Positions 4,846 to 61,476 of a stretch of DNA of 64,000 bases are shown here, piece after piece (positions within the stretch are counted from its first letter, which is position 1; every line of letters starts with the position of its first letter). Source of the DNA: Escherichia phage vB_EcoM_Goslar; sequence record NC_048170.1; one strand, given 5' to 3'. The position numbers were made by a program, and so were the translations under genes. The notes under the pieces are model-generated. The model was not told the DNA's origin. It was given only the letters and a program-made list of their open reading frames with translations, and did not search any database.

Positions 4846-4880
4846 CCTTCTCCCCAACCCGATGAGGGAAGGGGAGAAGG
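4846..4880. terminator. GC-rich hairpin, bidirectional terminator candidate (ccttctcccc/ggggagaagg)
   Basis: Perfect 10-bp stem between convergent genes; A9 run at 4822..4830 gives a T-run after the hairpin on the minus strand. Confidence 0.6.
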
Positions 4881-4897
4881 GCTATGCGCTATTTAAT

Positions 4898-5173
4898 TTA
4901 TTTCGAGGTTAACCACGATTCAATTGTGGTGAGTTTGCTTCTCAGTACGCGCCAACTAGGGTGTGGTGGGATCACAGCGCCATTGTCGATTACGGTTAGC
5001 TGAACCTGGTACTTCTGTTGCATACGTGCTACCGTGTCGCTTATCGAGAGGAAAAGCTGGTAACGTTCATATGCCGTCAGTTCACTGTCCTGTTGAACTG
5101 CGTTGGCTGCTAACGTAATTTCGCGTAAGTCCTTTGCATCCACAGAGACGGTAATGAGTTTATATTGACTCAT
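4898..5173 (-). CDS. hypothetical protein (91 aa)
   Basis: ORF track; ATG with AAGGAAAC upstream. Confidence 0.55.
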   Translation of the reverse strand: MSQYKLITVSVDAKDLREITLAANAVQQDSELTAYERYQLFLSISDTVARMQQKYQVQLTVIDNGAVIPPHPSWRVLRSKLTTIESWLTSK

Positions 5174-5234
5174 ACGGTTTCCTTATCAACTGGGGTATTG
5201 CAAATACAATACCCGTCGTCGGACGATAAGTTAA

Positions 5235-7793
5235 TTACTGCTCTTCACGTTCCAGCAGATACTCGGAAGCGGTAATACCGTTTACCGTACGTACTGCTTT
5301 CAGACGAGTATCATCACTCAGAATCACGGTAACAGATTGCAGACCTTTTACTTTGGTTTCGAAGGTCTTGAACACCTGATCCAGCATACGAGCAATGCTT
5401 GGGTTGGTTGCAGCCGATGCGTGGGTGTAACCGCTTTGGTTCAGCTTCAGAATCTTGGCGTTGGTCGGTACGCGAACAACAACATGCGGACGCATCGCGA
5501 ATACGCTGTGATTGAACCAGTAAGCGTCGTTACTATCTTCGTCGGTAACGATGTCTGGATTAACACGCATATCCTCGACAGCCGCATCCGCCAAACGACG
5601 TTCGATTTCATCGGCGTCCAGAGAGCCATCTTTCTCCAGTTCTGCACGATACTCACTCATGGCAACCAGATGACGTTCACGATTCGCTGCGGATTTTTCG
5701 TGAGCGGCTTTCAGGTAGTCATGCATGTTGTACAGTTCTGCCATGGAAAGACGAATGTTCCACTGACCTTCGCCATCGCGATTGCAGTAGAGACACTTCA
5801 GCATGTTGACCCAGGTATAGTAGCAATTGGCGAATTCATCTTCAATGAACTTCTGGTCCATTTTAAGATCGTGAATCAGCCAACCGGACAGTTCTCCGAT
5901 ATCATCAACGAAGCTAGAGATGGTGGTTTCAGAGAAGTTCTTCGGTACGATACGTTTGATCAGCTTATTGACGTCTTTGGTCATGCTATCGTTCAGGAAA
6001 TGCCAGATACGCAGAGGAATGACATCTCGATACTGTTGCATGATCTGACGATAAGCTTTGATATCGTCGCTACGACCTTTATCAATAGACAACGCATCCA
6101 GGAATTCATGGATTGCATCCAGCTCTTTGTCGGTATAGGTTCCCAGATAGGAATTGACGGTGGCCAGGAATGCTAATGCGTCGTTTTGGTTGACGTCGGT
6201 GTTGGTCTGCTGAATGATCGCCACTGCAGCTTTAGTTTCAGCATCCTCAACGCTTGACGCTGCGATCGCGTCGGTGACGGTAAACAGTTTCATTTCGCGC
6301 TGCTCACCGACAACGATTGGCTCACGCTGAACCGGCTTGTTAAGACTAACGCGAACAACTTCTGCTTGCGCGATACGATCCAGTTTTGCCATTTCCTGCT
6401 CTGCCATACGACGAGCGGTTGGATCTGATTCAAGTTCGATGTATTCCACTTCTTCCTCCGTGAGGGATGTAATGTCAACAATGGTTTCATGAAGAATTCC
6501 GTTTTCGTCGATACGTGCTCGACGAGCGAAGTGCCTGAAGTCATACAACGTCGGCCAACGACTATTAGGTGCAAAGTCTTTGGCTTTCAGACGCATCTGC
6601 ATAAATTCTTCATGTTGAACAACACGACCGTAACGCTTAGCATCTTCGGTCGCATCAATTGGATTAACGGTCTTTGTTGCCGTAGCGGAACGAGCCGTAC
6701 GAACCGGTTCCGGTTTCACCTGCGCCGGTTCAGGTTGAACGGGTTTCTGCTGTCCAGCCTTAACATGCCATTCTGGCTCTTCGTACTGTTCAGCAAATTG
6801 CTCAGCCGCTGCAAAGATATCGTTGATACCACCAATATCTCCTTCAGGATTTGTCGAGTAAATCCGTGGTTGCGGTGCCTCGTAACGCGGCGCTGTAGCA
6901 GCAGGTGCCTCATCAACGATAGGATCATCATCACCGACATCATACAAACGGTTGAACGCACAATCCTTCGAATCAATGTACGATGGTGTTTGTGGTTGGA
7001 CAACCGTAGGCCGAGGTTGTGTGCCGTATCCTGGTGTTGTTGGAGCCATACCACGCATAACTGCTGGGTTAGGTTGGTATTGTGGTTGTGGGTAGGTTCC
7101 ACCATACATGGCGTACGCAGGCTGTTGTGGTTGACCATACCCGTTGCTAACCATCGCACTTGCTTGCGGCCCACGATAAGTCATCCCCATCTGCATCACC
7201 TGCTGCTTCAAACCACGTGACTTCTGCGCGATTTGCGCTAGGCTTCCGCTTTTATTCAGCTGCGTGTACTTATTCGCGGCTTCCGGGTTAATGCGTGATA
7301 ATTCAATCGCGCGATAATATTCCGGGTACTGATTCGGTTCAAAGAGCCACGTTACAAGATGATACAGCGCAACTGTACTCACGGCAGCAGAGACGATCTG
7401 GTCGTCGGACGCGTTCTGTGGCATCGGGTTGATGTAAGAGAACACGTTCCAACAACAGTCTTCAACAAGCGATTCCATCATCATATCGTTATTGGTATAA
7501 CGTGCGACGAACTCGGTTTGTATTTTGTCTTGCTGAGCGAAGTCTTTCAGGACATTAAAGATGGCTTGACGGATTTTGACGATCGTCGCTTCTTGGGTGA
7601 TGAAGTTATAGTTCTGCTGATATGAGGGTTGTTGGTATTGTGGTGGTTGATAGGCGTTATTCGGGTATGCGCCGTACGGCGATTGCTGATACTGTTGCTG
7701 ACGAACCTGTTCAGCCGCATAATTAATCGTGCTCGTATAAGGGTTTTCGCTATAGCCCATTTGTTGATACATGTTGTTACTGCCATTATACAT
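5235..7793 (-). CDS. hypothetical protein (852 aa) with Q/Y/P-rich low-complexity N-terminus
   Basis: ORF track; ATG with AAAGGA upstream; N-terminal about 60 aa dominated by Q, Y, P, N; second QPQY-rich stretch mid-protein. Confidence 0.8.
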   Translation of the reverse strand: MYNGSNNMYQQMGYSENPYTSTINYAAEQVRQQQYQQSPYGAYPNNAYQPPQYQQPSYQQNYNFITQEATIVKIRQAIFNVLKDFAQQDKIQTEFVARYTNNDMMMESLVEDCCWNVFSYINPMPQNASDDQIVSAAVSTVALYHLVTWLFEPNQYPEYYRAIELSRINPEAANKYTQLNKSGSLAQIAQKSRGLKQQVMQMGMTYRGPQASAMVSNGYGQPQQPAYAMYGGTYPQPQYQPNPAVMRGMAPTTPGYGTQPRPTVVQPQTPSYIDSKDCAFNRLYDVGDDDPIVDEAPAATAPRYEAPQPRIYSTNPEGDIGGINDIFAAAEQFAEQYEEPEWHVKAGQQKPVQPEPAQVKPEPVRTARSATATKTVNPIDATEDAKRYGRVVQHEEFMQMRLKAKDFAPNSRWPTLYDFRHFARRARIDENGILHETIVDITSLTEEEVEYIELESDPTARRMAEQEMAKLDRIAQAEVVRVSLNKPVQREPIVVGEQREMKLFTVTDAIAASSVEDAETKAAVAIIQQTNTDVNQNDALAFLATVNSYLGTYTDKELDAIHEFLDALSIDKGRSDDIKAYRQIMQQYRDVIPLRIWHFLNDSMTKDVNKLIKRIVPKNFSETTISSFVDDIGELSGWLIHDLKMDQKFIEDEFANCYYTWVNMLKCLYCNRDGEGQWNIRLSMAELYNMHDYLKAAHEKSAANRERHLVAMSEYRAELEKDGSLDADEIERRLADAAVEDMRVNPDIVTDEDSNDAYWFNHSVFAMRPHVVVRVPTNAKILKLNQSGYTHASAATNPSIARMLDQVFKTFETKVKGLQSVTVILSDDTRLKAVRTVNGITASEYLLEREEQ

Positions 7794-7827
7794 TTCTTAC
7801 GATCCTTTTTATTTATTCGGTTATGTG

Positions 7828-9624
7828 TCAATCGATTATGTCGCGATCGTTAATTTCTACAATTTCTTCATCGAATCGACCGACGTCTTTCTTCAAGCCT
7901 GCATTGGTTGCTGCAACGTCATTTGCAATTTGTGGGGTAATGATTAACCGACCGCGCTCATCGATAGGTGCGTACATACTGAACTTCTGACGTCCGGTTG
8001 GTTCGGAGTGTGGAAGATTCAGATAGCTTGCACAGAACGGGATGGAACCACTAACCAAACGACTCTCGTCAGCCAATGCAGCACCGCCTGCGTTTTGGCT
8101 CTGGAGAACAACATGCGTGCTCACTTTGAACAGCATGCAATCACCAGGTGACTGAATCGATGTTGCCACTTTCTCACGTTTATCACGATTGCTCTGGATA
8201 TTGAGAATCGCTTCCGTTGCAACTTGATTTCGCAACGCCTTCTGTACATCGCGATTGGTCATCTCTTTACGGTTGTTCTGTCGTTTACCACGTTCTGTGG
8301 TTTTAAGATGGAACCCCAGTTTAAAGATGCTCTTACGCACATCCTCCATGACATATTCCAACACCATCAATTCCTTACCGAACATCGTCGTGGTATCAAC
8401 ACGACTCATTTCGATAGTGACATTGTCAATCAGATACGCCATAAATTCGTAGAAGTCGTCGCAAGGAATATTTTCCTGTTTGAACTTCTTCTGTTGAATC
8501 TCGTCAACGTAAAGATCGAGACTGTCGATGTGGTGGTTTACATCACGCAACAAACGCGCATCCGCATTGTTGTTATTAAAGATAATCAAACCGAGTAATG
8601 TACGCCAATGGTCTGGCGCATTCGCGAACTCCTCAACCGGATAGTCTTCCGGAAAACGATCGTAATAACGGTCGATGAGATACAAGAATGCACCGACAAG
8701 GCCAAGAACAATACGTTCCGTGCCTCCACGTCTTACAGCAATTTGAATATCAGGATGTTTGTAACGTACAGCGCTAGCGCTACGGCTTTTACCGCTTTTG
8801 CTGATACTAAAGCCTTTAGGAATAACCCCCATGGTGCGATAGATTACCCATTGGTCACGCGGAAAATCACGTTCAGCAAGGTTCCGTCCGGTTACGGCTT
8901 CGACACCTGCAAAACGTCGGAAACACTCACCCACCCCGTACTTCGCAAAGAGATAGTGACCCAGTGTGGTTACGCTGGTGTGGTTGATGTTGTCACCGTT
9001 CACTTTACTTTGTTTAGTAAGATGATAGATTTGCGACCAGGGTAATGACAGGTAATGACGATAATCGATACCGGTCGGTGTATCATTGCTCAGGAACTGA
9101 TACGGTGTACGTTTAACCGTGATTTTGTCACGCGGAAGCATGATGAACGCCATGTCTTTCGTGTAACTGATTACGGGGTCAGCGAGTACCGCACTGAGAA
9201 TGAAGTTCGCACCACGTAGACGCATTTTACCACCCTGACCTACCGCGGGCAATAGGAGAGGATGTCGGATAATGCAGTAGTCCTTTCCTGGTTCACGACG
9301 GTCACCTGATTCCATCGCGCCGTACCAGCGGAATTCCAGCATCACCATAAACACATCGGAAGGCGCAAGGTCGAAGGTCAGCTTACCGCTATCCTTCCCT
9401 TTGGTTTTCTTTCCTCCGCTTAAGTAGTGGAACTGTTCGCGGGCCATACAACGACGCAGGCCATGATACACCAGATCCTTAGGTAAACTATCTTTGCTGT
9501 TCCGCCAAAGACGATCAACATAGGACTCAACATCTTGCATCTTATCGACGACGATGTTGCGTGCTATCTTCTCGTTCATCTTCGGTGCAAGCTCAGCGAC
9601 AGCTTTGCAGAATCTAGGATCCAT
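7828..9624 (-). CDS. hypothetical protein (about 598 aa)
   Basis: ORF track frame; track start 9627 is GTG, adjacent ATG at 9624 has AAGGAG 6 nt upstream. Confidence 0.8.
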   Translation of the reverse strand: MDPRFCKAVAELAPKMNEKIARNIVVDKMQDVESYVDRLWRNSKDSLPKDLVYHGLRRCMAREQFHYLSGGKKTKGKDSGKLTFDLAPSDVFMVMLEFRWYGAMESGDRREPGKDYCIIRHPLLLPAVGQGGKMRLRGANFILSAVLADPVISYTKDMAFIMLPRDKITVKRTPYQFLSNDTPTGIDYRHYLSLPWSQIYHLTKQSKVNGDNINHTSVTTLGHYLFAKYGVGECFRRFAGVEAVTGRNLAERDFPRDQWVIYRTMGVIPKGFSISKSGKSRSASAVRYKHPDIQIAVRRGGTERIVLGLVGAFLYLIDRYYDRFPEDYPVEEFANAPDHWRTLLGLIIFNNNNADARLLRDVNHHIDSLDLYVDEIQQKKFKQENIPCDDFYEFMAYLIDNVTIEMSRVDTTTMFGKELMVLEYVMEDVRKSIFKLGFHLKTTERGKRQNNRKEMTNRDVQKALRNQVATEAILNIQSNRDKREKVATSIQSPGDCMLFKVSTHVVLQSQNAGGAALADESRLVSGSIPFCASYLNLPHSEPTGRQKFSMYAPIDERGRLIITPQIANDVAATNAGLKKDVGRFDEEIVEINDRDIID

Positions 9625-9663
9625 CACACACTCCTTTCAGAAAGTTGCTTAAGCAGATTAAAG

Positions 9664-11100
9664 TTACTTTTTCGATGACGCCTTCTCAAGAATCTTGAAA
9701 AAGGTCATACCTATACCGACAACAGCCGCGGTTATACTCGCAGCGGCTTTCCAAACATCGACGTTACGTTGACGTCGCGCTTCTTCCGCTTCACGTTGTC
9801 TTTTTGCCTCTTCATCACGTCGACGTATCTCAGCCGCAAACTCGTCATGCTTACGTTTGGCTTCTTCGTCTCGACGACGAAGTTCAGCGACGAATTCTTC
9901 ATGTTTGCGTTTAGCCTCGTCGTCACGACGTTTTAAATCAGCTTGATAATCTTCGTGTATTTGTCTACGTAGATCATCTTGACGTTTCATTTCGGCTTGG
10001 TGTTGTTCCATCCTACGTTTTTGTTCGTCTTTAAGCTGATCGAGTTCGGCTTTATGTTGTTCATCACGCAGCTTTGCGTCGGCGCGATGCGCCTCATGCA
10101 TCTGTGCGATAACTGCCTTGTGTTCATCCGCCATACGTCGCATTTCAGCCATCACCCCTTTAAGGGTTTCTTCTGATGCCTTACGTTCGTAGCTACGTTG
10201 GTCGAAATCATTTTTGTAGGCTTCTTTTTGGATGGGGTCGCGCCAATGCAATGCCGATTCACGCGTCGGAAAAACATTGTACTTCCACATCTCTTTTTCC
10301 AAATCTTCGACCGGTACGAAGACGGAGTCATTATTCCCGAAGGTAACCAACATACCTGGCGCGCCTGCTCCATTCGTTGGTTTTATTTCGAACGCTTTCC
10401 CCAACACGTTAACCCATAAGCTATACGGATTATGAAAGTCGGGCGGCGTCCAATGGATAGTGAGTTGCGTTCCGAGAATCCGGAAACCCTCTGTTTTTCC
10501 CGTCAAGCTCCGCGCGCACGTTGCGATGTAGGGGTGATCAATCCCTTTCGTAACGTGGTCTGCGCTTTTGTATTCTCCTTTAACTTTTACGATTGCCACG
10601 TTGATTTGCGCGACATAAGCGGGTTGATTAAAGTTCAACGTGTTGAGGTCAATTTGACATATTTCATCCAGCGTATCGTACCAGTCTTGCTGGTCTAATA
10701 GACGCGGCATTTTCTCTGTGTTAACAATACGACGGATATGCGGTTTCCTTATCGCGTAACCTGTGCCGTTTTTAACACGGAGTATATCCCGACGTCTACC
10801 CGCGTAGACGAAGTTTCTGAATGCACCATTCGCATTAGATACGTCATGGCTGTCAACTATTACAGGACTACGAAATTTTGAACGTCGTACGATCCTGAAT
10901 GTATTGCCGTCCTCAACCCTACCAGGAATGTACTGGAACATATTGTCGGAGGTGATAACCAACACGGTATGGCCAGATTCATTAATACATGCCCATCCTA
11001 ATTCCAGGTCATATAACGGTTCAGCATAACCGTCAATGCGATATGCGTGCGTACCATCCCACGGTTCGAACGCAGTATCACATATTGGCATGGAGGGCAT
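9664..11100 (-). CDS. hypothetical protein with charged tandem-repeat helix and C-terminal transmembrane anchor
   Basis: ORF track frame; track start is TTG, ATG at 11100 has GGAGG 6 nt upstream; three 18-aa repeats (RRRDEEAKRKH-EF-AE); hydrophobic segment AAASITAAVVGIGMTFF then KK at C-terminus. Confidence 0.8.
   Translation of the reverse strand: MPSMPICDTAFEPWDGTHAYRIDGYAEPLYDLELGWACINESGHTVLVITSDNMFQYIPGRVEDGNTFRIVRRSKFRSPVIVDSHDVSNANGAFRNFVYAGRRRDILRVKNGTGYAIRKPHIRRIVNTEKMPRLLDQQDWYDTLDEICQIDLNTLNFNQPAYVAQINVAIVKVKGEYKSADHVTKGIDHPYIATCARSLTGKTEGFRILGTQLTIHWTPPDFHNPYSLWVNVLGKAFEIKPTNGAGAPGMLVTFGNNDSVFVPVEDLEKEMWKYNVFPTRESALHWRDPIQKEAYKNDFDQRSYERKASEETLKGVMAEMRRMADEHKAVIAQMHEAHRADAKLRDEQHKAELDQLKDEQKRRMEQHQAEMKRQDDLRRQIHEDYQADLKRRDDEAKRKHEEFVAELRRRDEEAKRKHDEFAAEIRRRDEEAKRQREAEEARRQRNVDVWKAAASITAAVVGIGMTFFKILEKASSKK
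9775..9936 (-). repeat. 3 x 54-nt in-frame tandem repeat encoding the charged 18-aa repeats
   Basis: Direct codon-by-codon reading of 9664..9940; repeat units 9775..9828, 9829..9882, 9883..9936. Confidence 0.8.
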
Positions 11101-11253
11101 CGTCAACCTCCATCAGATTGAAAACTATCACGCATAATACATTTCCCTTTTTCTTGTTCTTATCAAGCCGACAGCCGACGGTTTCAGCATCGTTCCTAGC
11201 GCGAGAACGACCTTACGTGTTGTCTATGCCTTATTCATCGCAGGCGTCTGTCA

Positions 11254-11280
11254 CCTAGGTAATGTAAGCGTCAAATTTTT
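11254..11280. promoter_or_regulatory. copy of conserved intergenic motif cctaggtaatgta (candidate promoter element for gene starting at 11100)
   Basis: Shares ctaggtaatgta core with copies at 17721 and 54693; lies between a hairpin and the next minus-strand gene. Confidence 0.35.
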
Positions 11281-11309
11281 TCTATTCGCAACGATAAACG
11301 GCATAGAAA

Positions 11310-11339
11310 CCTCCCCCAACCCTTACGGGCTGAGGGAGG
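11310..11339. terminator. GC-rich hairpin (cctccc ... gggagg) downstream of major structural gene
   Basis: Inverted repeat with inner ccc-ttac-ggg; about 100 nt 3' of stop at 11439 on minus strand. Confidence 0.5.
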
Positions 11340-11438
11340 CTGACTTATGTATCACGGTGCCGGATGAATGTCCGGTGCAATGAAACCATCTGCAACGTTG
11401 TCATCAAGAATATCATCCAACGAAGCAGCTACGGTAGT

Positions 11439-13661
11439 TCAGTTAGTCTGAACCGGCAGCTTGATGTTTTCAGTGTAGACCTTACGCAGGTTCACAACGT
11501 TAATCAGACCCAGCAGCGGGCAGTTGTTAACGAAGCGGCAGCGCGGCTGAACCATGGTTTCTTTAGAAACCTGACCGTTACGGGTAACCTGAGCAACAGA
11601 TACCAGTTCCGGTACATACAGGAACATACCGAAGGTCAGCGGATCCGGAGAACCCTGGATACCACGAGACAGGGTCACGAAGATCTTATCGCGCAGCATG
11701 ACGTTCGGGTTATCTACAACCACGAAGTTGAAGCTTACACCAACGGTACGGAAATCGCCATCGGTCTGCAGGAACTGCGGGATGTAGTTGTCAGTTGCTA
11801 CTACGCAACGCGGTTTCTCATCAGCGTTGGAAGACAGCAGCTGCAGAGCTGGCTGATAACCAGACTCGGAGTACATGCGGTATGCCATCTCACGAATCAC
11901 GTTCATGATCGCAGCAGACACTTCAGCACGACGTTCTGCAGTGGTGGTACCCTGAACAGATTTCTCCAGGTCCAGATTGATTTCTTCGAACCACGGACGG
12001 ATCAGGTAACGACCGAAACCTTCGATCTGGATGTCACCGAACTGACGGAAGCGAGAGGTCGCAACCGCTTTCAGTGCGTCTTTGTAGCTGAACAGTTTCT
12101 CAACCATCAGGTTGTCGAAACGTGCGTTAGCAGCTTGGATCAGAACGTCCAGGTCAGCAGCGTTTTCTTCCCAATCCAGCGGACGAGGAATGGAGAACGG
12201 AGCCAGCAGGCCGATTGCGTAACGTTCTTGCTTCATGTTGAAGTCAAGGTGCTTACCGCGCTCACGACGGTTGCTGTTGTTACGACGGATACGCAGTTCG
12301 TAACCAACCAGTTTGAAGCTCAGGTCTTCAGCCAGTTGTTTGAACTCTTCGCTCTTACGCGGTTGTTCGATGTTGTCCTGATCAACCAGGCGATACAGTT
12401 CAGCGTTAGCGCCGTTAACACGCAGACCCGCTTTCTCTACGTTGGAAGAACCGTAAACTTCGATCGCCAGCTGAGCAGCGGATTTCGCATCGATGATGTC
12501 CTGCAGCGCTTCGGCTTTCGCACCTTTAACGTCTTTGGTGTTCTCATCAACGAAGATGGAGTGGGTGTCGAACGCCAGGGTCATTTTGCGGAAGTCGCCT
12601 TCCAGGGATTTCTGGAAACCGTTGGTGATCAGACCAGATACGTCGAACGGTACGTAAGAGGTTTTGCTGTGCTTGGTAGATTTGATTTCCACCAGGATTT
12701 TGGTCAGCGTGATCTGAGCATCCAGCGCGTCGGTGTTGTCGCTGTAACCGTTAGCCAGAATGCTGTCGTCTTCAGCGATACCGATCATGTCGATCAGTTT
12801 ATCAACAGCCAGGTAAGACGTTTTATAAGTTACGCCTTTAATTTCGATGTCGCGCGGAGCAACGATAGCTTTGTCAACGAAGTACTGCGCGTTAGCATCG
12901 TCAGCACGATAGATCGGATGCAGATCGGTCACGTCGTTGGACAGAACGTCGTTATACATGAACGCATCCAGCAGCGGACGACGTACCCAATCAGCCGGAG
13001 TACCGTCAGCGTTACGACGCAGGTGGTTGAACACCAGCGGACGACGGAAAGATACGTCGTAACCGATCTGGTTCGGAGCCAGAACGATGGTGTTGTACAG
13101 TTCGTTACCCATGCGGCTCAGACGAGAAGCCTTCACGTTGAACACGACGGAGTACGGCATCATGTCACGCAGTTCTTTCTGGTCGTAGGACAGCTGAACC
13201 AGTTCTTCAGATTCGCAACCGCAGGAATCAGCAGCCATCATGACGAAGTTAGAGCTGTCAACTTCACGACCTGACGGAGTGGTGCTGATGTTCATGGAAC
13301 GTGCTTGTTTAGCATATTCTACCGGGTTGCCATGAGCCAGCATGATCAGTGCTGCTGCACGAGCCTGCTGTGCGTTCATGGTGAACAGCTGTTCTTCAAT
13401 ACGCTGCTTCTCTTCCGGAGTGGTGGTTTCGAAGCCCAGCAAGGTCAGAACCGGTTCTTCGGCTTTACGGATGTCGCTGCTGAAGCTCTTAACATCCATT
13501 TCGTTAACCAGTTTGTCCATGGATTTGAAATCAACCTTAGAAGCAGATTCCATAGACAGGAAGGTGTTCTCCAGACCTTTGTCTGCTGGTTTGCTACCAT
13601 TAGCGGTCAGGAACTGGCGAGTGGCCGCGACCTGTTGGCTAAGAAGGGTTTTATCATTCAT
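11439..13661 (-). CDS. major virion structural protein, putative major capsid protein (740 aa); tail sheath is the alternative
   Basis: ORF track; ATG with AAGGA 8 nt upstream; strongly optimised codon usage (CTG, CGT, GGT, AAC, TTC, GAA) unlike neighbours; size matches phiKZ-type capsid proteins (recalled, not searched); 149-nt leader. Confidence 0.6.
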   Translation of the reverse strand: MNDKTLLSQQVAATRQFLTANGSKPADKGLENTFLSMESASKVDFKSMDKLVNEMDVKSFSSDIRKAEEPVLTLLGFETTTPEEKQRIEEQLFTMNAQQARAAALIMLAHGNPVEYAKQARSMNISTTPSGREVDSSNFVMMAADSCGCESEELVQLSYDQKELRDMMPYSVVFNVKASRLSRMGNELYNTIVLAPNQIGYDVSFRRPLVFNHLRRNADGTPADWVRRPLLDAFMYNDVLSNDVTDLHPIYRADDANAQYFVDKAIVAPRDIEIKGVTYKTSYLAVDKLIDMIGIAEDDSILANGYSDNTDALDAQITLTKILVEIKSTKHSKTSYVPFDVSGLITNGFQKSLEGDFRKMTLAFDTHSIFVDENTKDVKGAKAEALQDIIDAKSAAQLAIEVYGSSNVEKAGLRVNGANAELYRLVDQDNIEQPRKSEEFKQLAEDLSFKLVGYELRIRRNNSNRRERGKHLDFNMKQERYAIGLLAPFSIPRPLDWEENAADLDVLIQAANARFDNLMVEKLFSYKDALKAVATSRFRQFGDIQIEGFGRYLIRPWFEEINLDLEKSVQGTTTAERRAEVSAAIMNVIREMAYRMYSESGYQPALQLLSSNADEKPRCVVATDNYIPQFLQTDGDFRTVGVSFNFVVVDNPNVMLRDKIFVTLSRGIQGSPDPLTFGMFLYVPELVSVAQVTRNGQVSKETMVQPRCRFVNNCPLLGLINVVNLRKVYTENIKLPVQTN

Positions 13662-13810
13662 TGAAAGTATCCTTTACAGAATTAACTTATATAAGTCGGT
13701 CGATAGACCATAGCGTACACGCGTGCATGCGCCACTATAGTATCAGTAAACACTTACCGTTATTGAGGTCGTGATACAACACTAAAAATGCCGCATAACT
13801 TTTCCCTACG

Positions 13811-14431
13811 TCATAAACGACGCAGGCGATAATGGATGGAACGATTGGTGCAATATGAACGGAACAGCGGCAATTGCGCAACTTCCGCAAGACTCATATT
13901 AATTCGCAGGTGTTCAATAACGGCGCTGTAGTTATCAGCAATACGATCGCTCAATAACTCTTCTGCCAATAAAGGAAGACAATCGACAACAATCGCGATC
14001 ACATCCTCATTAACATAACGCACCCGAACACTCAACGGACGTTTGTCTGGGCTGTAAGTTGGATCCGCCAAACGACGTTCAATATCACGCGGATAGCTCG
14101 TCAGTAAATGGTAATAACCATTGTCATAACGATTGATGTACTCGCACAGCACATCAACATTCTTCTCTGGCGGCAAACCTGTTTCGTCATAGTGATACGC
14201 AAACATACCACCAAGCAGGTTGTTAAGATGAACTGCAGGGTTCGCTTGTTCGTGTTCTTTCGTGATGAAGAAAGGCACGTTTTGAGCCGCGAAATAAAAA
14301 CCTACATCATTGGGCGATAGTATGCCGAAAAGACTTTTAGGATCTAATAACACCTGTAAGTCATCACGCGCATTTCGAATGATCGCGTGTTCTACCCAAT
14401 TCGGAACGACGAGATATCGGAGTTCCTTCAT
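13811..14431 (-). CDS. hypothetical protein (206 aa)
   Basis: ORF track; ATG with AGAGGT 8 nt upstream. Confidence 0.7.
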   Translation of the reverse strand: MKELRYLVVPNWVEHAIIRNARDDLQVLLDPKSLFGILSPNDVGFYFAAQNVPFFITKEHEQANPAVHLNNLLGGMFAYHYDETGLPPEKNVDVLCEYINRYDNGYYHLLTSYPRDIERRLADPTYSPDKRPLSVRVRYVNEDVIAIVVDCLPLLAEELLSDRIADNYSAVIEHLRINMSLAEVAQLPLFRSYCTNRSIHYRLRRL

Positions 14432-14470
14432 TATGATTACCTCTTTGCAAGTATCGAAAGGATTGAGTCG

Positions 14471-16081
14471 ATGGACCCAAAACAGATAGCCATTAAGATT
14501 ATTACGTTACTGTTTCGTAATGCACAATTGAACCATCCCGATCCCAGTACGATCGAACATGTTAAATCCGTCTTAGATAAAGTCGAACCCCCGAAAAACC
14601 ATCTCGCTACAGACGTAGATAGAGAGGTTTTCAGCAACCTGATGAACACCATTCATTGGATGCTGGAACAACCGTTATCGGAACCTTTCGATAAACAACA
14701 GTTGTTACAAAGGATACGTTTAGATTGCCTTGAACAAAGCAATCTTTACGAGATTCTTGCCGACGGACTGTACGATATCGAAGACGACGCTCATATCAGT
14801 AAGGTCTGTTCGCTCTATTACAATGAATTACGTAATCTGATTACCCGTCGTCGTGTTTTCGAAACCTTTAAAAACACGTACATGGATATCAGTAACGGGC
14901 GACTTGGGGATAAAGAATTTTTCGATGCGATGGCGAATTTGAAATTATCGCTAGACAGTATCGAAATGGATACCGAAAATCCCGAAGAGATGTCGTGTAT
15001 GATTGACGGCTTTATCGCTGACAGCGAAGACGATATCGAGAAAGTTGAACGTATGTTCGTCAAAGCGATGGAACGTAACAGTCCTGAAGGTGGATTTGTA
15101 ACCGGCTGGCAAGGCTTTAATAAAATGTTGGGGTCGGTCGGTGTTTTACGTCGCGGTACCTTAGGACTGATTGGTGCAATGCAGCACCGAAACAAGTCAG
15201 GTGTGTTGTTAAAACTGTTCACGCATCTGGCACTGTACAATAAACCCCATTTCTTTTTTCCGGAGCGAGCAAAGAAAGCACTACTGATTCACTTGTCAAC
15301 AGAAAACGAAGTAGAAGAAAACACGCTTCAGATATACAAGAACATGCGAGAACAGGAAACAGGCGAATATGTCGATATTCGTAAGATTGACCCTCGCGAG
15401 GCATCACGTTATGTGTTGAAGGTGTTCAACGATGCGGGTTTCTCTGTTTGTATGCGTCGTGTTGATGGGATGAGTTATAAACAACTCGCTAATCTCATCG
15501 ACCATTTCGAACGCATGGGTTATGAAGTCATGGCGTTGTTCATTGACTATCTGAAAATGTTCTCATCGGAAGGGTTGGATAGAAATGGACCGACCGGCGC
15601 ATGGTTACAAGAACTCTTCAACAAAGTACGTAACCTCTGCAGCGTTAAACGTATTTTAGGTATGACCGTACACCAGCTGTCATCCGACGCGAAGATGCGC
15701 GCACGTGACGGTAACGATGAAGAGTTCGTTGACCAAGTCGCGGGTTTAAGTTACTGGGATGGTTGTAAAGGGATTGACCGTGAGATTGACCTCGAAGTGA
15801 TTGTTGATATCGTTAAGGAACCGGGTAAACGTCAAAGCTGGCAAGTCTTTGCGTTAGGGAAAGACCGTCAACCGGATAACGGTTCAACGAAACCTGAAGA
15901 CAAACATTTCGCGATGCCATTCCAAACCATCGGGATGCTTCCTGATGATTACGGTAAGAAAGCAGTATATTGCCGCAAGGTTGGCGGACAACCTGTCTCC
16001 GAGGGAGGTAAAGGTCCGTGGAACAAGTTCGATGAAAACGCAGCACCGAGTAATGAATTACAATTTGATTTAGAATTTTAA
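14471..16081 (+). CDS. hypothetical protein (about 536 aa)
   Basis: ORF track frame; track start 14387 is GTG and overlaps the divergent gene; in-frame ATG at 14471 has AAGGA 8 nt upstream. Confidence 0.7.
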   Translation: MDPKQIAIKIITLLFRNAQLNHPDPSTIEHVKSVLDKVEPPKNHLATDVDREVFSNLMNTIHWMLEQPLSEPFDKQQLLQRIRLDCLEQSNLYEILADGLYDIEDDAHISKVCSLYYNELRNLITRRRVFETFKNTYMDISNGRLGDKEFFDAMANLKLSLDSIEMDTENPEEMSCMIDGFIADSEDDIEKVERMFVKAMERNSPEGGFVTGWQGFNKMLGSVGVLRRGTLGLIGAMQHRNKSGVLLKLFTHLALYNKPHFFFPERAKKALLIHLSTENEVEENTLQIYKNMREQETGEYVDIRKIDPREASRYVLKVFNDAGFSVCMRRVDGMSYKQLANLIDHFERMGYEVMALFIDYLKMFSSEGLDRNGPTGAWLQELFNKVRNLCSVKRILGMTVHQLSSDAKMRARDGNDEEFVDQVAGLSYWDGCKGIDREIDLEVIVDIVKEPGKRQSWQVFALGKDRQPDNGSTKPEDKHFAMPFQTIGMLPDDYGKKAVYCRKVGGQPVSEGGKGPWNKFDENAAPSNELQFDLEF

Positions 16082-16106
16082 ACGCAAAAAAAAAGATTGT
16101 GCGGTT

Positions 16107-51203: not shown

Positions 51204-51250
51204 ATCAAGTATGTTGATCCTCGTTTAACAAAAAGAAAACGCATGCGAAG

Positions 51251-51282
51251 CCCCTCCCCCTGGCGGAAGCCGGAGGGAGGGG
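51251..51282. terminator. GC-rich hairpin cccctccc ... gggagggg, bidirectional terminator candidate
   Basis: 8-bp outer stem between convergent candidate exon (+) and gene 51289..51774 (-). Confidence 0.55.
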
Positions 51283-51288
51283 TGAGGT

Positions 51289-51774
51289 TTATGCGCGTTC
51301 GTTGCCAACCGTTACTTTGTAGTCAGCGTCGGTTAAGAAAATAGACAGGAATCCATGTTCTTTGCAAATCTTACTAAGGATGTCAGCAATGATTTCGTTG
51401 ATCATCGGCTTGTTTGCAAGGGCATAGATGTACCCGGGTGTAAAAGAAAGTGCGTGATTGATCATAGGCTCATGAGAAGCCAAGATAAGGATCACGTGAT
51501 GCTTCCCATCGTCGGTAACGACCGCTTGCGTAGACACGAAGAAATCAGTGAAGCAGCAGCGATCACAGGCTTTAGGTATATACAAGTCACCCAGAGCTTC
51601 GTCACGTGCTTTTACGTGTGTTTCAGGGGTAATGCTGCTAAGTTGATCTTCAGCGAGATCCAAGACATCCTCAATCGTTTTAAGAATAGCGTTGCGGAAA
51701 TCCTCACGGTAGAATGGGATGATATCACGATCGTTCATGTAATCGCCGGATTCGATAGTAAAGTTGATGTTCAT
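51289..51774 (-). CDS. small hypothetical protein (161 aa)
   Basis: ORF track; ATG with AGGAG 6 nt upstream. Confidence 0.65.
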   Translation of the reverse strand: MNINFTIESGDYMNDRDIIPFYREDFRNAILKTIEDVLDLAEDQLSSITPETHVKARDEALGDLYIPKACDRCCFTDFFVSTQAVVTDDGKHHVILILASHEPMINHALSFTPGYIYALANKPMINEIIADILSKICKEHGFLSIFLTDADYKVTVGNERA

Positions 51775-51884: not shown

Positions 51885-52361
51885 TTATCCCTTGTTGGAT
51901 TCGTCAATATACTTGGTGTCGTAAGACAAATGCTGAATTAATTTTCTAGGTCTGATGAAAATACGACATGTGATAAACACATCGGGATCGTATTGTTCCA
52001 CGCAACGTCCGAAGGCTCGTTTTGCGGACTGACGCATCAAGGCTAATTCCTGATCGTTCATCTCATCATCAAATTCGATGAGTATTGTTATTTTATCGGG
52101 AAATAAATAGATAGAGTAATCGCTACCGATATCACCGTCGTCAAAACGATAATCGTTGTGGTAATGGCGGAGCTTACCTTCGTGCTCCGCCTGGTACCAC
52201 CCGACGATACTATCAAGGCCCATACCCAGGCGTCCGAATGCCTGATTAATAATATCATCAACGACGGATGCAGGTGTGGGGCCATTGAATAATCTATCCA
52301 GACATTTTTTCATCGATTTGGTTTTCACGTTCATTGTTTCTTTTCCTGTTATAGTCAACAT
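51885..52361 (-). CDS. small hypothetical protein (158 aa; alternative start 52334)
   Basis: ORF track; ATG at 52361 abuts hairpin; in-frame ATG at 52334 has AGGAAAAG upstream. Confidence 0.6.
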   Translation of the reverse strand: MLTITGKETMNVKTKSMKKCLDRLFNGPTPASVVDDIINQAFGRLGMGLDSIVGWYQAEHEGKLRHYHNDYRFDDGDIGSDYSIYLFPDKITILIEFDDEMNDQELALMRQSAKRAFGRCVEQYDPDVFITCRIFIRPRKLIQHLSYDTKYIDESNKG

Positions 52362-52364
52362 ATA

Positions 52365-52398
52365 GCCCTTCCCCGGCCTTGACGGCTAGGGAAGGGGC
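52365..52398. terminator. imperfect GC-rich hairpin gcccttcccc ... gggaaggggc
   Basis: Inverted repeat with one shifted base; 3' of stop of gene 52424..52909. Confidence 0.45.
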
Positions 52399-52423: not shown

Positions 52424-52909
52424 TCAACCAGAGATGTTGCACGTTTCTTCTTCGTCGAGTGCGTACTCCATTGTGTAGAATTCATAACCATCGGAAAACT
52501 TGAGTGTTACTGTAATAGGGAAATCGCACGGCATAGCTGATTTCTTAAATGCGTTATTAGCAACATCAGCCAACCGACGTATAGCATCAGTCCCGCTGAC
52601 ACTGAATGGTAGTTGTATGTTGATAAGGATGCGGTGCTTGTAAACATAGAAAACAACGGTGCTGTCAAGATAAACGCTATGGAACGGTATTGTTGGGATG
52701 CGTTCCACGATGGTAAAATACGTCCCATCAATATCACTATTTCCCACTGACCACTTATCGGATTTGCGTAGATTTTCTTTGAGGAATTCGACGCTTCGAG
52801 TGACAGCCTCAGTAGTAGGTGCGACGTATGCGTCTTTATGCGTGTCGAAAAGTTCGTTGACGTTAGATTTGAATGAATACGCTGTTGCCATTTTGATAAC
52901 ACCGGTCAT
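52424..52909 (-). CDS. small hypothetical protein (161 aa), tandem paralog
   Basis: ORF track; C-terminal FPITVTLKFSDGYEFYTMEYALDEEE resembles C-terminus of gene 52952..53443. Confidence 0.65.
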   Translation of the reverse strand: MTGVIKMATAYSFKSNVNELFDTHKDAYVAPTTEAVTRSVEFLKENLRKSDKWSVGNSDIDGTYFTIVERIPTIPFHSVYLDSTVVFYVYKHRILINIQLPFSVSGTDAIRRLADVANNAFKKSAMPCDFPITVTLKFSDGYEFYTMEYALDEEETCNISG

Positions 52910-54098: not shown

Positions 54099-54154
54099 AT
54101 CGAATTCCTTAAATTCTCTTGAGTTCAATTAATGATGAAAAGCTGTAAAAAAAA

Positions 54155-54172
54155 GGTGGGGCGAACCCCACC
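54155..54172. terminator. intrinsic terminator for minus-strand gene 54197..54622 (ggtggggcgaaccccacc plus T8 run)
   Basis: 7-bp GC stem with 4-nt loop, followed on the minus strand by 8 T (plus-strand A8 at 54147..54154). Confidence 0.75.
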
Positions 54173-54196: not shown

Positions 54197-54622
54197 TCAA
54201 TTCAGTGATGCATATAACGCATAACGACTGTAGATCTCAACCGCCGGTCCGTTATGCGTTAACAGACCATCCCGGTTGTAATACTGGAAAAATGAATAAC
54301 GTTTGTCGAAGTGATAAACAAAAGCAATGTCTTTGCCGTCAAAACCTGTGATGCGTGGTCTGTTTTTATCTAACAATGCTTTGACTTTTAACAGTGTTGC
54401 CGCACGTGCTTTAACGTTAGGGATTAATCCATCACAGTCGATATAAACGGTGTAACCTGTTTCAGATGTTGCGACGGTTGTATTACGATTGACGCGGAAG
54501 ATTTTTGTTTCGTATGTACTATCTTCAAGAATTGGGTTTTGTTTTTCGTATTTTCGTTTACGTAGAAATTCTACAACGGTGATATAGTTAGCGGTAATAT
54601 GCCCGGTTATAGCTTGTAACAT
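54197..54622 (-). CDS. small hypothetical protein (141 aa)
   Basis: ORF track; ATG start; classic terminator downstream. Confidence 0.65.
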   Translation of the reverse strand: MLQAITGHITANYITVVEFLRKRKYEKQNPILEDSTYETKIFRVNRNTTVATSETGYTVYIDCDGLIPNVKARAATLLKVKALLDKNRPRITGFDGKDIAFVYHFDKRYSFFQYYNRDGLLTHNGPAVEIYSRYALYASLN

Positions 54623-54721: not shown

Positions 54722-54750
54722 CGTTAACAAGAAATAAAAACAGCATAGAA

Positions 54751-54790
54751 CCCTCCTCCCCCATCCTTCAAGAGGACGGTGGGAAGAGGG
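54751..54790. terminator. imperfect GC-rich hairpin ccctcctccc ... gggaagaggg
   Basis: Inverted repeat 3' of stop of gene 54798..55199. Confidence 0.45.
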
Positions 54791-54797
54791 AGAGAGA

Positions 54798-55199
54798 TTA
54801 AATGTCGTGGACGGCATTGCCGTTTAACCAGCAATACAGTTTAACGCGACAGGAATACCGCTTCGTTGCAGCAACCATTTCATCGCGTAAACGCTGGTAG
54901 ATTTCATCCTGGTGTTCACGTTCAATGGGGTAATCAGCCCAACATTCGATCATGACGTCACCATTAGTCAGAATCGTCGTACGCATCCTGTCCTGGACAC
55001 GACGATCTTTCCCAGCATTAGGGAAATACATCCCTTCAGTACGAATAAGGTCGCCGCAGGGCATGACTAACCATTCGTTCGTTTTGCCGGTATTCTTATA
55101 ATCCATTACAGCTTGCATTGCGGTGTCAACGCTAAAAGAAACATAATTCCAAACGGATGTCCAACGATAGATTGCGGGTTGTTCGAGTGTTTCGTTCAT
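54798..55199 (-). CDS. small hypothetical protein (133 aa)
   Basis: ORF track; ATG with AGGAAAAG upstream. Confidence 0.65.
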   Translation of the reverse strand: MNETLEQPAIYRWTSVWNYVSFSVDTAMQAVMDYKNTGKTNEWLVMPCGDLIRTEGMYFPNAGKDRRVQDRMRTTILTNGDVMIECWADYPIEREHQDEIYQRLRDEMVAATKRYSCRVKLYCWLNGNAVHDI

Positions 55200-55253
55200 G
55201 GAGTGCTTTTCCTATTTTTATTTTCTGCACAGGATAAATTCAACGGCATAAAG

Positions 55254-55285
55254 CCCTTCCCTGCCCTTATATGGGGCGGGAAGAG
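55254..55285. terminator. imperfect GC-rich hairpin cccttccctgccc ... ggggcgggaag
   Basis: Inverted repeat flanked by gcataaa / tttatga arms. Confidence 0.4.
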
Positions 55286-55412
55286 TTTATGACCGCAATG
55301 AGAATCTCTCACGACAAGCTCACGACGATTATCGCATCACCCCGCGAGTGAGGGAGATCAGGATCACCTCCTACGTCGTAACGACAGCAATCCCGTTACG
55401 TCGCATTAGACG

Positions 55413-56051
55413 TTATGCAAAGCGACGCATGTAACCTGCCAGGTAGTTACGTGTATCGAAGTAGGCAATTTCAGGAATTGCGATATTAAGGTCGATAGCA
55501 CGGATTTCAACTTGGCGACGGCTTTCATCATAGATCGCATCCATCAGACGCAGTACTGTCAGGAAAGCCATGCGGGTATGGTAGTCCAGCGGCATGTTAT
55601 CGATACCGCGATACAGATAACGGTTTGCGTTAAATGCCCCTTCGCTGTTATCTTTCCAGATCTTCAGAATATCAGCAAAGGCGGTGCGGAAAACCTCAGG
55701 ATTATCCACATCCAGTAACGCACGGAAAGCAGACATTAAAGACCGCTGATGACGGATCAACGACTGCGGTGTTTGCGGCATGGTTGGACCCATTTCTTCC
55801 GCATATTTCTGGAACGGGGCAACCAGGGTTGCGGCACGAGAAGCCACGATAGAAACAGCAGGCGATTCTTTCACCGCCGGTTTCGCAGGCTTTTCTTCAA
55901 CAACGGTTTCCTTCTTCTCAACAGCGACCGTTTCCGGCTGTGCTACAACGTTGTTGGTCGGAGCAGCAGCCGCACCATTTTCCACGGCGGTCTCTACTGC
56001 TGTAATCTTTTCGTCCATTTGTGCGGAACGTTGGTCTTTATTCTTGCTCAT
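55413..56051 (-). CDS. hypothetical protein (212 aa) with Ala/Val/Glu/Lys-rich N-terminus
   Basis: ORF track; ATG with AAAGGAAA upstream. Confidence 0.7.
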   Translation of the reverse strand: MSKNKDQRSAQMDEKITAVETAVENGAAAAPTNNVVAQPETVAVEKKETVVEEKPAKPAVKESPAVSIVASRAATLVAPFQKYAEEMGPTMPQTPQSLIRHQRSLMSAFRALLDVDNPEVFRTAFADILKIWKDNSEGAFNANRYLYRGIDNMPLDYHTRMAFLTVLRLMDAIYDESRRQVEIRAIDLNIAIPEIAYFDTRNYLAGYMRRFA

Positions 56052-60495: not shown

Positions 60496-60587
60496 TCGAT
60501 CCGCGATACGGGTTACACGACGGGCAACTTGTTCGTAATGATGAAAAAATCTGGGAATTGCTGTTAGCGCGTAAAGGCGATGGTGGC

Positions 60588-60917
60588 ATGAAGCTGAACA
60601 TCGAAATGGGTATTGCGTACGATACCATGTTTGGCTTGTACGATCGTGTTAACGACTGGACGCCGTTGAAATGGGTGGCTCAGCATCCCGCTGAAGATCC
60701 CTGGGACAGATTAGGGATTAAACCCTTAATCGAGGATTATGTCCGATTCGGTATTAAAGAGTTCATGACGCTGGATGCGTTTTTAAAAGCACCGTATCCT
60801 TACGCGCAAACGGTACTCAAAATCGCACAAGACGAACTGCGGAAACGTAGTGCGGTACTGGACGACGATGAGGACAAGTTACGACGAGAAGAAGAACGTT
60901 TACGAAACGGAAAATAA
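60588..60917 (+). CDS. small hypothetical protein (start uncertain)
   Basis: ORF track frame 60558..60917 begins with TTG; first ATG at 60588. Confidence 0.45.
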   Translation: MKLNIEMGIAYDTMFGLYDRVNDWTPLKWVAQHPAEDPWDRLGIKPLIEDYVRFGIKEFMTLDAFLKAPYPYAQTVLKIAQDELRKRSAVLDDDEDKLRREEERLRNGK

Positions 60918-60918
60918 A

Positions 60919-61428
60919 ATGGCGAGATTTACCAGTTTGATTGGATTGGACATTTGGGAAACACCGGCTGACGTTCGGGTTATTCCTGTCAACACCGTCG
61001 GTGTGATGGGACGTGGTCTTGCCAAGCAGGCTGCCGAGCGCGTGCCCGGTCTTCTTGAAGCGTACCGCAAGCAATGTCGAGATGGGTTTACGGTGGGTGA
61101 AGTCGTGTCATATCAGCATGGCGAGAACGATCAGCTCACCTACGTGTTGTTTCCATCAAAATCGGATTGGCGTGAAAGAACACGACGCGAGTATATCGTT
61201 AACGGTTTACTGGCGTTAAAAGCATGGTTATTGGAGCTTCAGTTCGAAAGAGACGGCTTCTCATACCACCGTCCGGCTGAACCGTTGATTGTCGCAATTC
61301 CTCCGGTTGGTTCTGGTTGCGGTAATATCGGTTACGGACAATCCGAAACAATCCAGCCTCAGTGGGTACGCGCACAAATCAAACAGTATCTTGCCACCGT
61401 ACCGAACGTTCATTTCTACTTGTTCTAA
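60919..61428 (+). CDS. macro-domain protein (Poa1p-like, putative ADP-ribose processing enzyme, 169 aa)
   Basis: ATG at 60919 directly after upstream TAA; motifs VIPVNTVGVMGRGLAKQAA and VAIPPVGSGCGNIGYG resemble macro-domain Gly-rich loops; ORF-track start 60850 would overlap upstream gene. Confidence 0.6.
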   Translation: MARFTSLIGLDIWETPADVRVIPVNTVGVMGRGLAKQAAERVPGLLEAYRKQCRDGFTVGEVVSYQHGENDQLTYVLFPSKSDWRERTRREYIVNGLLALKAWLLELQFERDGFSYHRPAEPLIVAIPPVGSGCGNIGYGQSETIQPQWVRAQIKQYLATVPNVHFYLF

Positions 61429-61444
61429 TGCAACGGTAACATAA

Positions 61445-61476
61445 CCCTCTCCCAACCCAGCAGGGAAGGGAGAGGG
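61445..61476. terminator. GC-rich hairpin ccctctccc-aa-ccc-AGCA-ggg-aa-gggagaggg, bidirectional terminator candidate
   Basis: Perfect stems between convergent genes; flanked by cataac / gcttatg arms. Confidence 0.6.

Follow-up and report, generated by a model that had tools for sequence, protein, structure and literature searches.

A 64,000-nucleotide (nt) stretch of Escherichia phage vB_EcoM_Goslar (NC_048170.1), referred to here as the window, carries 15 GC-rich hairpins that most likely end transcription as factor-independent (intrinsic) terminators of a phiKZ-like jumbo phage, operating in both directions where they lie between convergent gene pairs. We place the probability of this reading at about 0.85. 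The hairpins exceed chance expectation, are located exclusively 3ʹ of genes, differ in strength between the two strands, retain their structure while their sequence changes, and share the architecture of the terminators mapped in phiKZ. From this we infer that transcripts of the window phage end at the hairpins, and likewise which polymerase is stopped there. The element is a phiKZ-type conserved terminator with a lineage-specific two-tier stem, and not a new kind of element. A preliminary description of the same DNA had proposed factor-independent bidirectional terminators in a phage that encodes its own RNA polymerase. That core is retained here, with the polymerase assigned to the phiKZ type, whereas its proposals of a GNRA loop, of a contrast with host terminators, and of coupling to re-initiation are not.

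Generic inverted-repeat searches miss the two-tier hairpins because of their internal loops, and the strongest folds were therefore located by folding a sliding 46-nt segment along both strands. With a cut-off on the free energy of folding (ΔG) of −23 kcal/mol or lower, the real sequence yields 17 clusters (best −31.9), versus 1–5 clusters in each of seven dinucleotide-preserving shuffles (mean 3.3, best −26.5). In the sliding-fold scan, 14 of 16 strong clusters fall within the intergenic 6.7% of the annotated span (p = 4e-15). A stable hairpin is present at every one of the 15 coordinates listed in the preliminary description, which thereby captured essentially all of the strongest structures, and the folding energies it had proposed to compute for each copy range from −12 to −31 kcal/mol. 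The other two structures at or below the cut-off are intragenic, near 10513 and 52155. These hairpins (10513–10558, −23.2 kcal/mol; 52155–52200, about −24/−25.5 kcal/mol) lack the arm-and-tail architecture described below, and their number is within the 1–5 expected by chance. Searching the whole window against Rfam at gathering thresholds gave no matches, and a tRNA scan found nothing.

The hairpins, each named here by a position within it, do not form a single sequence family. The core CCCGTAAGGG occurs eight times with at most one mismatch, versus 1.8 expected. A strict two-tier core, CCYTCYYCC-AA-CCC-NNNN-GGG-AA-GGRRGARGG, is present in six copies (16107, 17776, 29009, 31715, 39990 and 61445), and the hairpins at 4846 and 11310 are close variants of it. 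Six others (23081, 42839, 51251, 52365, 54751 and 55254) are GC hairpins that have in common only a 5ʹ arm rich in C and a 3ʹ arm rich in G, whereas the last, at 54155, is a short classical terminator with a run of eight T nucleotides on the − strand. The earlier view of one family of 15 copies is accordingly narrowed to the eight two-tier copies. A C- or pyrimidine-rich 5ʹ arm paired with a G- or purine-rich 3ʹ arm is found in 14 of the 15 elements; at 54155 this polarity is reversed on the + strand.

Placement counts were made on a gene map built from long open reading frames (ORFs). Hairpins are present at five of five convergent junctions, 10 of 39 tandem junctions, and none of four divergent junctions, a distribution that is as expected of terminators and not of promoters or operators. 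The stem begins 2–31 nt past the stop codon at 13 of the 15 sites. At the other two, 55254 and the site 3ʹ of the capsid gene, the gap widens to 127 nt and 98 nt, respectively, which limits the earlier statement that the copies lie near stop codons; that statement otherwise agrees with these counts.

Past the stem, the transcribed side carries a conserved tail of the form Y-TTATG-YYGT, for example CTTATGCTGT, TTTATGCTGT and TTCTATGCCG. Fifteen of 20 transcribed sides, and four of 10 non-transcribed ones, have a TATG whose G lies 5–9 nt past the stem; chance would give about 1.3% per side. The strict expression GGBYTTATKYYGT matches four tails (17776, 23081, 55254 and 61445). At three of the five convergent sites there are TATG tails on both strands, and at the other two (16107, and 51251 at a distance of 11 nt) the tail is on the + side only. 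Tails on both strands create the CATAA-stem-TTATG palindrome noticed earlier, and the flanks CATA(A)...(T)TATG in the preliminary description are indeed real. An additional role for the tail ATG as a start codon, with the G-rich arm serving as a Shine-Dalgarno sequence, was considered and rejected as a general function, because it fits only the ATGs at 17772 and 52361. The ORF at 17772 is a doubtful one of 62 amino acids (aa), and the other tail ATGs open ORFs of 5–17 codons or are out of frame with the next gene. Separately, a weak hairpin at 10033–10060 (+) is followed by a perfect phiKZ-type tail (GGCTTTATGTTGT) and lies antisense inside the gene 9664–11106 (−). It may represent an antisense terminator, as 9% of phage termination sites are reported to do, or be due to chance.

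The closest counterpart of this architecture is found in phiKZ, where 133 termination sites have been mapped by ONT-cappable-seq (Putzeys et al. 2024, microLife; PMC10914365). Sixty-one of the phiKZ intrinsic terminators carry the motif 5ʹ-BCCYCCCCHWWDGGGRRGGBYTTATKYYGT-3ʹ, six of them being bidirectional between convergent genes, and TTATG is part of the published motif itself (PMC10914365). As in the window, the phiKZ terminators have a C-rich 5ʹ arm, a G-rich 3ʹ arm, and a TTATKYYGT tail 1–3 nt past the stem. They also lie 3ʹ of ORFs, including the capsid gene, and form the CATAA...TTATG palindrome at convergent genes. When we searched phiKZ DNA (100–150 kb), the same CATAA-stem-TTATG palindromes were found. 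The one after the capsid gene reads aCATAgg-CCCTCCC-TTCG-GGGAGGG-CTTTATGTTGT, and the one between convergent genes 129 and 130, CATAAgc-CCTCCC-GTAAT-GGGAGGG-cATTATGttgt, is readable on both strands. Among the window copies, the one at 23081 fits the complete phiKZ motif, apart from three mismatches. The two sets differ in their stems, which are lineage-specific in sequence: eight window copies are two-tier (9 bp, a 2x2 internal loop of A.A or U.U, and a CCC/GGG cap closed by a tetraloop), whereas the phiKZ stem is a simple one of 6–8 bp.

Published transcript ends allow the position of termination in phiKZ to be related to the tail. Termination and transcription start sites were taken from the bioRxiv supplement tables, and offsets were computed on phiKZ genome coordinates. 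For 14 TTATG-tailed terminators, the published 3ʹ end is located at −1 (four cases), +1 (five) or +2 (five) from the tail G, so that terminated phiKZ RNA ends in ...UUAUG(Y)(Y). Four phiKZ terminator pairs (T012/13, T018/19, T051/52 and T059/60) are single palindromic hairpins that act in both directions.

The post-capsid position extends the comparison beyond phiKZ. A hairpin followed by TTTATGCCG is located 3ʹ of the capsid gene in phiKZ, Noxifer, Eowyn, SA002, Xoo-sp14 and pEa_SNUABM_54, with stems that are unrelated in sequence. The window hairpin at 11310 and its tail occupy the same post-capsid position as in phiKZ and these five other phiKZ-like phages. In LucasX, the comparison of capsid genes showed the tail to be missing.

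Three unique hairpins fold much more strongly on the transcribed strand, a signal at the RNA level. At 11310, the transcribed strand folds with a ΔG of −26.7 kcal/mol and includes two G.U pairs, versus −17.8 on the + strand. The corresponding values at 54751 are −30.8 and −24.8, and at 23081 they are −15.9 and −12.4, with a G.U pair and a UUCG loop formed only by the mRNA. The transcribed strand is favoured at these three sites because its G.U pairs turn into A.C mismatches on the other strand. The 42839 hairpin differs in relatives by two pair changes that are compensatory (GGTGGAGG/CCTCCACC), and its loops differ as well. A survey of 96 two-tier copies in eight related genomes found perfectly complementary arms in all 96, with three arm types, and at the 54751 site a two-tier copy takes the place of the unique hairpin in some relatives. 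Together, the compensatory changes, perfect arms, and replacement of one type by another argue that a strong hairpin is maintained at each site, and not a particular sequence.

The loop does not share this constancy with respect to the mRNA. The preliminary description had treated a GNRA loop as a feature of the element, but on the strand carrying the AA bulges the 96 loops are GTAA, GTCA, ATCA, AACA, AGCA, GTGA, ATTA and GGAA, which have only R-N-N-A in common. At 17776, 29009 and 31715, where the transcribed strand is −, the RNA loop is UUAC or UCAC, and GTAA or GTGA appears only on the + strand. Moreover, when five window segments (16107–16138, 31715–31746, 61445–61476, 29009–29040 and 17776–17807) were compared with loci L001–L097 of genomes 90–98% identical, the centre (AA-CCC-loop-GGG-AA) was inverted relative to the conserved flanks at seven of 10 orthologous sites, which include tandem as well as convergent ones. 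The mRNA thus does not maintain a GNRA fold. The flipping pattern suggests either frequent inversion of the hairpin centre or gene conversion between oppositely oriented copies.

These observations bear on an alternative in which the repeats are primarily DNA-level elements, such as a palindrome of the repetitive extragenic palindromic (REP) or miniature inverted-repeat transposable element (MITE) type, a recombination hotspot, or a protein-binding cruciform, that spread or homogenise and only incidentally terminate transcription. Such behaviour would account for the roughly 10–13 near-identical copies per genome, the exchange of whole arm-plus-loop cassettes between orthologous sites (61445 and 54751), the centres inverted at seven of 10 sites, and the location of several copies at indel or homology breakpoints. 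However, all 12 alignable orthologous sites keep a hairpin and none is empty, every copy lies 3ʹ of a gene while divergent gaps contain none, and the G.U asymmetry favours the transcribed strand. In distant phages, unrelated stems with the same tail stand at the same positions. Among 185,579 species genomes, the two-tier element gave a single isolated match, in a bacterial metagenome-assembled genome (MAG), and was otherwise absent from bacteria and archaea; a host-derived repeat was likewise rejected. Gene conversion among dispersed repeats accounts for the homogenisation without the need for a DNA-level function. We regard this alternative as highly improbable, and its mobile-element form is rejected on the absence of empty sites, the restriction to gene 3ʹ ends, and the single genomic match. 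It does follow from the flipped centres, cassette swaps and identical copies that recombination or gene conversion also acts on the repeats, which we read as a consequence of their being dispersed palindromes.

Small inversions of hairpin loops are known from chloroplast DNA, and bacterial REP elements are dispersed extragenic palindromes. The window elements resemble both, as repeated intergenic palindromes that evolve in concert and whose segment between the arms flips between close relatives. They differ in being confined to gene 3ʹ ends, in carrying a terminator tail, and in leaving no empty sites.

The genomes that carry the element are two IMG/VR contigs (183 and 238 kb; 90–98% identical) and five metagenomic contigs (208–249 kb), with about 10–13 copies of the two-tier core per related genome. 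The search of related phages that had been suggested earlier thus finds the element present, at 12 of 12 alignable sites, with a counterpart in phiKZ. In both IMG/VR relatives, an extra gene of about 650 bp (about 210 aa, no Pfam match; L005:12822–13472 and, in L008, about 5185–5835) is located between the stop of the 17812–19179 orthologue and the hairpin. It is not in the window (17807–17813), and the junction falls exactly at the hairpin edge.

At convergent genes, canonical Rho-independent terminators can serve both strands with one hairpin, in which the tract upstream of the stem is complementary to the tract downstream. The window hairpins resemble canonical terminators in being GC-rich and just 3ʹ of a gene. 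They differ in having Y-UUAUG-YYGU in place of a U-tract, with 3–5 U in the first 8 nt, and a true run of eight U is found only at 54155. When a U-tract was defined as at least five T among the first 8 nt past the stem, it was not a general feature: 54155 alone has eight of eight, four transcribed sides reach five of eight (11310, 23081 and 29009, all −, and the − side of 61445), and the others have 0–4, most tails other than that of 54155 having 3–5. A scan of positions 1–20000 with a classical terminator consensus flagged none of the four hairpins located there. The T-runs noted in the preliminary description at 4846, 16107 and 54155 fare unevenly, since that at 54155 is a full run directly after the stem and the A9/T9 runs at 4846 and 16107 are merely nearby.

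The lack of a canonical U-tract in most copies is one of several observations that weigh against a terminator function. Four places (42839, 54155 and the − sides of 16107 and 51251) also lack a TATG tail no more than 11 nt from the stem. CATA/TATG occurs on four of 10 non-transcribed sides as well, so that the symmetry of the flanks is partly unexplained by termination of the annotated gene. Lastly, the near-identity of many copies could reflect homogenisation at the DNA level and not selection on each copy.

The weak U-tracts also invite the view that transcription reads through and that the hairpins serve only to protect RNA 3ʹ ends, as barriers to 3ʹ–5ʹ exonucleases. In favour of this view, the hairpins form very stable folds directly past stop codons, and most have no strong U-tract. 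Trimming, however, would remove the conserved tail 3ʹ of the hairpin, yet this tail is kept across genera and is included in the phiKZ 3ʹ ends. In addition, the 201phi2-1 study reports that cloned terminators of this phage lower expression of a downstream reporter in vivo, which indicates termination and not trimming (PMC11512511). We therefore consider protection or processing alone very unlikely.

The same study provides a second reference set. It describes terminator motifs A–E in 201phi2-1, of which motif A resembles the phiKZ motif, and states that co-occurring motifs lengthen the stem and terminate more strongly (PMC11512511). By description, not by sequence, these elongated hairpins are analogous to the long composite stems of the window. 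Eight of the 201phi2-1 terminators, some with conserved motifs, are reported there to be strong in uninfected Pseudomonas chlororaphis (PMC11512511). The earlier contrast between the window hairpins and classical host terminators is consequently dropped, as these related terminators are reported to work in an uninfected host.

The tail itself resembles a known promoter. The phiKZ late promoter is 5ʹ-TATG-3ʹ, in which TATG is necessary and transcription starts at the G (Yakunina et al. 2015, PMC4666361), so that the preliminary description was right to link TATG to the phiKZ late-promoter motif. A 2026 structure shows that the β-like subunit gp123 binds the TATG motif on the non-template strand (PMC12809450). 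The tail and the late promoter share a tetranucleotide, and in both the active site is at or next to the G, given starts at the G and termination within 2 nt of it. They differ in that the tail TATGs are not mapped starts in phiKZ and that late promoters need no hairpin.

Terminator-promoter modules, in which the tail TATG doubles as a late promoter so that termination and re-initiation occur at the same spot with the start at the G, are a further alternative. The requirement for TATG in phiKZ late promoters, its binding by gp123 (PMC12809450), and the presence of a gp123 homologue in the window speak for such modules, as do the eight of 10 tandem-site hairpins whose TATG tail precedes a gene and the phiKZ late start P049, which uses a second TATG 5 nt past a hairpin tail. 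Tails are nonetheless as frequent at convergent sites (seven of 10 sides within 9 nt), although antisense RNA is all that a promoter there would produce. Within the 19.9–118 kb region of phiKZ, none of 15 tail TATGs coincides with a mapped transcription start (±3 nt, same strand). Separate early, middle or late phiKZ promoters lie 20–47 nt further downstream (for example P012, P016, P017, P023 and P054), and the strong model late promoter P119L has no hairpin upstream. On this evidence we consider dual-purpose tails very unlikely, and the earlier idea of coupled termination and re-initiation is not supported. The lack of starts at the phiKZ tail TATGs, together with the tails at convergent sites, favours assigning TATG to the terminator over a re-initiation device.

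A more speculative possibility, which we hold to be rather doubtful, is that the tail is a promoter-like pause element replacing the U-tract, with TATG on the non-template strand pausing the polymerase through the gp123 pocket while the active site is at the G. This reading would place the G 6–8 nt past the hairpin, in the same register as during initiation; the evidence is compatible with it. If correct, it would explain the conservation of A, U and G in the tail across genera, the depletion of TATG in genes, and the location of phiKZ 3ʹ ends within 2 nt of the G. TATG is indeed depleted on coding sense strands, with 206 occurrences versus 281 expected from synonymous-codon shuffles (z = −7.5), and the whole window contains 342 versus 475 in dinucleotide shuffles. 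AATG (z = −4.1) and CATA (z = −4.0) are both depleted in coding regions as well. One possible cause of the depletion is that a polymerase signal, or an internal ATG, is avoided. The reported activity of 201phi2-1 terminators with the host polymerase argues that the gp123 pocket is not required (PMC11512511).

Ordinary intrinsic termination, driven by the hairpin and with a sequence-specific tail moderately rich in U, is the model with the best support. In this model, the nascent RNA would fold into a very stable hairpin with a pyrimidine- or C-rich 5ʹ arm and a purine- or G-rich 3ʹ arm (ΔG about −16 to −31 kcal/mol), followed by the moderately U-rich conserved tail Y-U-U-A-U-G-Y-Y-G-U, whose G lies 5–9 nt past the stem. 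If the process resembles that in phiKZ, the polymerase would let go of the RNA no more than about 2 nt from the tail G, and the hairpin left on the transcript presumably shields its 3ʹ end as well. At convergent gene pairs, the full CATAA-stem-TTATG palindrome would allow one hairpin to serve both directions.

Five hairpins lie between convergent genes. The hairpin at 4837–4886, a two-tier variant (CCTTCTCCCC-AA-CCC-GATGA-GGG-AA-GGGGAGAAGG) with CATA/TATG flanks, separates 1905–4814 (+) from 4898–5173 (−), gives sliding-fold values of −26.7/−28.0 kcal/mol, and is kept in relatives A and B. It is predicted to be a bidirectional terminator. The strict two-tier core at 16107–16144 separates 14387–16081 (+) from 16155–16481 (−). 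It has its TATG tail on the + side only and a T9 run 12 nt off on the − side, and its centre is inverted in relative A. At 39985–40027, a two-tier core with GCATAA...AATATGC flanks and TATG tails on both strands is located between 36975–39968 (+) and 40031–42823 (−), with sliding-fold values of −29.3/−32.1. The GC hairpin at 51251–51293 (CCCCTCCC(C)-CTGGC-GGAA-GCCGG-...GGGAGGGG; −31.6/−27.7) is found 6 nt past the stop of 51289–51774 (−) and 781 nt past 49258–50469 (+). The fifth, a two-tier core with the loop AGCA at 61440–61482, lies between 60850–61428 (+) and 61494–61868 (−) and has TATG tails on both strands. In relatives, its arms and loop are swapped for the CCCTCCTCC/GTAA type and its orientation is polymorphic.

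The remaining 10 hairpins follow genes on the − strand. At 11302–11349, the hairpin 98 nt 3ʹ of the major capsid gene (11439–13661, −) has on the − strand the form GCCTCCCTCAGCCC-GTAA-GGGTTGGGGGAGG, followed by TTTCTATGCCGT. The strict two-tier core at 17770–17807 begins 4 nt past the stop of 17812–19179 (−), and its − strand tail, CTTATGCTGT, is one of those that fit the phiKZ expression. A simple phiKZ-like terminator at 23075–23108, GCCCGCCC-UUCG-GGGUGGGC and then TTTATGCTGT, is located 3ʹ of 23117–26494 (−). Two further two-tier cores follow, one with CCTTCCTCC arms at 29002–29040, 10 nt past the stop of 29051–30340 (−) with the tail TTTTATGGCGT, and one at 31708–31752, 22 nt past the stop of 31769–33091 (−) with the tail TTCTATGCCGC. 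The centre of the former is polymorphic in orientation among relatives, and that of the latter is inverted in relative B and in other relatives. In the 3ʹ part of the ORF 29051–30340 there is also a perfect 11-bp palindrome with a 1-nt spacer (29160–29182; AGCGCCATTTC-A-GAAATGGCGCT, ΔG about −20 kcal/mol), which is not of the terminator type.

An unrelated perfect 12-bp hairpin (CCTAGGGGAAGG/CCTTCCCCTAGG) is found at 42839–42869 between the tandem genes 42883–45687 (−) and 40031–42823 (−), with no TATG within 9 nt. In a comparison with L009/L010 and metagenomic relatives, most relatives with an aligned copy have, directly after it (42869–42883), a 22-nt insertion that forms a second small hairpin, GCGTACGGTTATACGGTACGC. 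The GC hairpin at 52359–52398 (−) lies 26 nt past the stop of 52424–52909 (−), and the ATG of its tail, CTATATG, is the start codon of 51885–52361. At 54147–54172 (−), the classical intrinsic terminator GGTGGGG-TTCG-CCCCACC with eight of eight T follows 54197–54622 (−). The long imperfect GC hairpin at 54744–54795 (−) is 2 nt past the stop of 54798–55199 (−) and has the tail TTCTATGCTGT. Finally, the GC hairpin at 55247–55291 (−), 127 nt past the stop of 55413–56051 (−), has CATAA/TTATG flanks on both sides and the tail CTTTATGCCGT, one of the strict matches.

The source of the window is a phiKZ-like jumbo phage of the nucleus-forming type. Its proteins include a phiKZ-type major capsid protein (phrog_3231), a DnaB-like helicase (phrog_3213), virion proteins, and a ‘polymerase’ (phrog_2943), and the capsid, helicase and polymerase-subunit genes are in the order of phiKZ genes 118–124. 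The last of these, 7828–9627 (−), encodes a homologue of gp123, the β-like subunit of the phiKZ non-virion RNA polymerase (phrog_2943, E = 7e-120; 24% identity to gp123, E = 2e-57), and it is the only polymerase subunit in the window. Presumably, a polymerase of the gp123 type is the enzyme stopped by the hairpin signals. The capsid protein is at most about 34% identical to those of isolates infecting Xanthomonas, Erwinia, Pseudomonas and other hosts, and about 33% identical to those of phiKZ-like phages. A megablast search with 6 kb of the window against 50,697 phage records gave no match, nor did a tblastn search with a 1125-aa ORF.

Other features of the window were also recorded. Matches to sigma-70-like promoters in 1–20000 number 14, versus 29.3 ± 5.0 in shuffles, or about half, which fits a phage that does not rely on the host RNA polymerase. 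The ORF at 49258–50469 (+) encodes a homing endonuclease-like protein of 403 aa with a NUMOD1 domain and an HNH_3 domain that falls narrowly short of the cut-off. The next 780 nt or so (50470–51250) contain no ORF longer than 55 aa, and relative B diverges from the window directly after the 51251 hairpin. The region 1–1900 contains only short ORFs (73 aa or less) on both strands, with no tRNA and no Rfam match.

Two by-products might interest specialists, namely the shared TATG register of termination and initiation and the frequent flips of hairpin centres between near-identical genomes. Through the main result, a terminator signature whose experimental mapping comes from two Pseudomonas jumbo phages is extended to a lineage whose capsid protein is about 33% identical to its nearest isolates. 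Such a signature can help to annotate where operons end in phiKZ-like genomes from metagenomes, on which ordinary terminator finders fail. Taken with the comparison of capsid genes, the hairpin followed by TTATG(C/T)(C/T)G is a family-wide punctuation mark.

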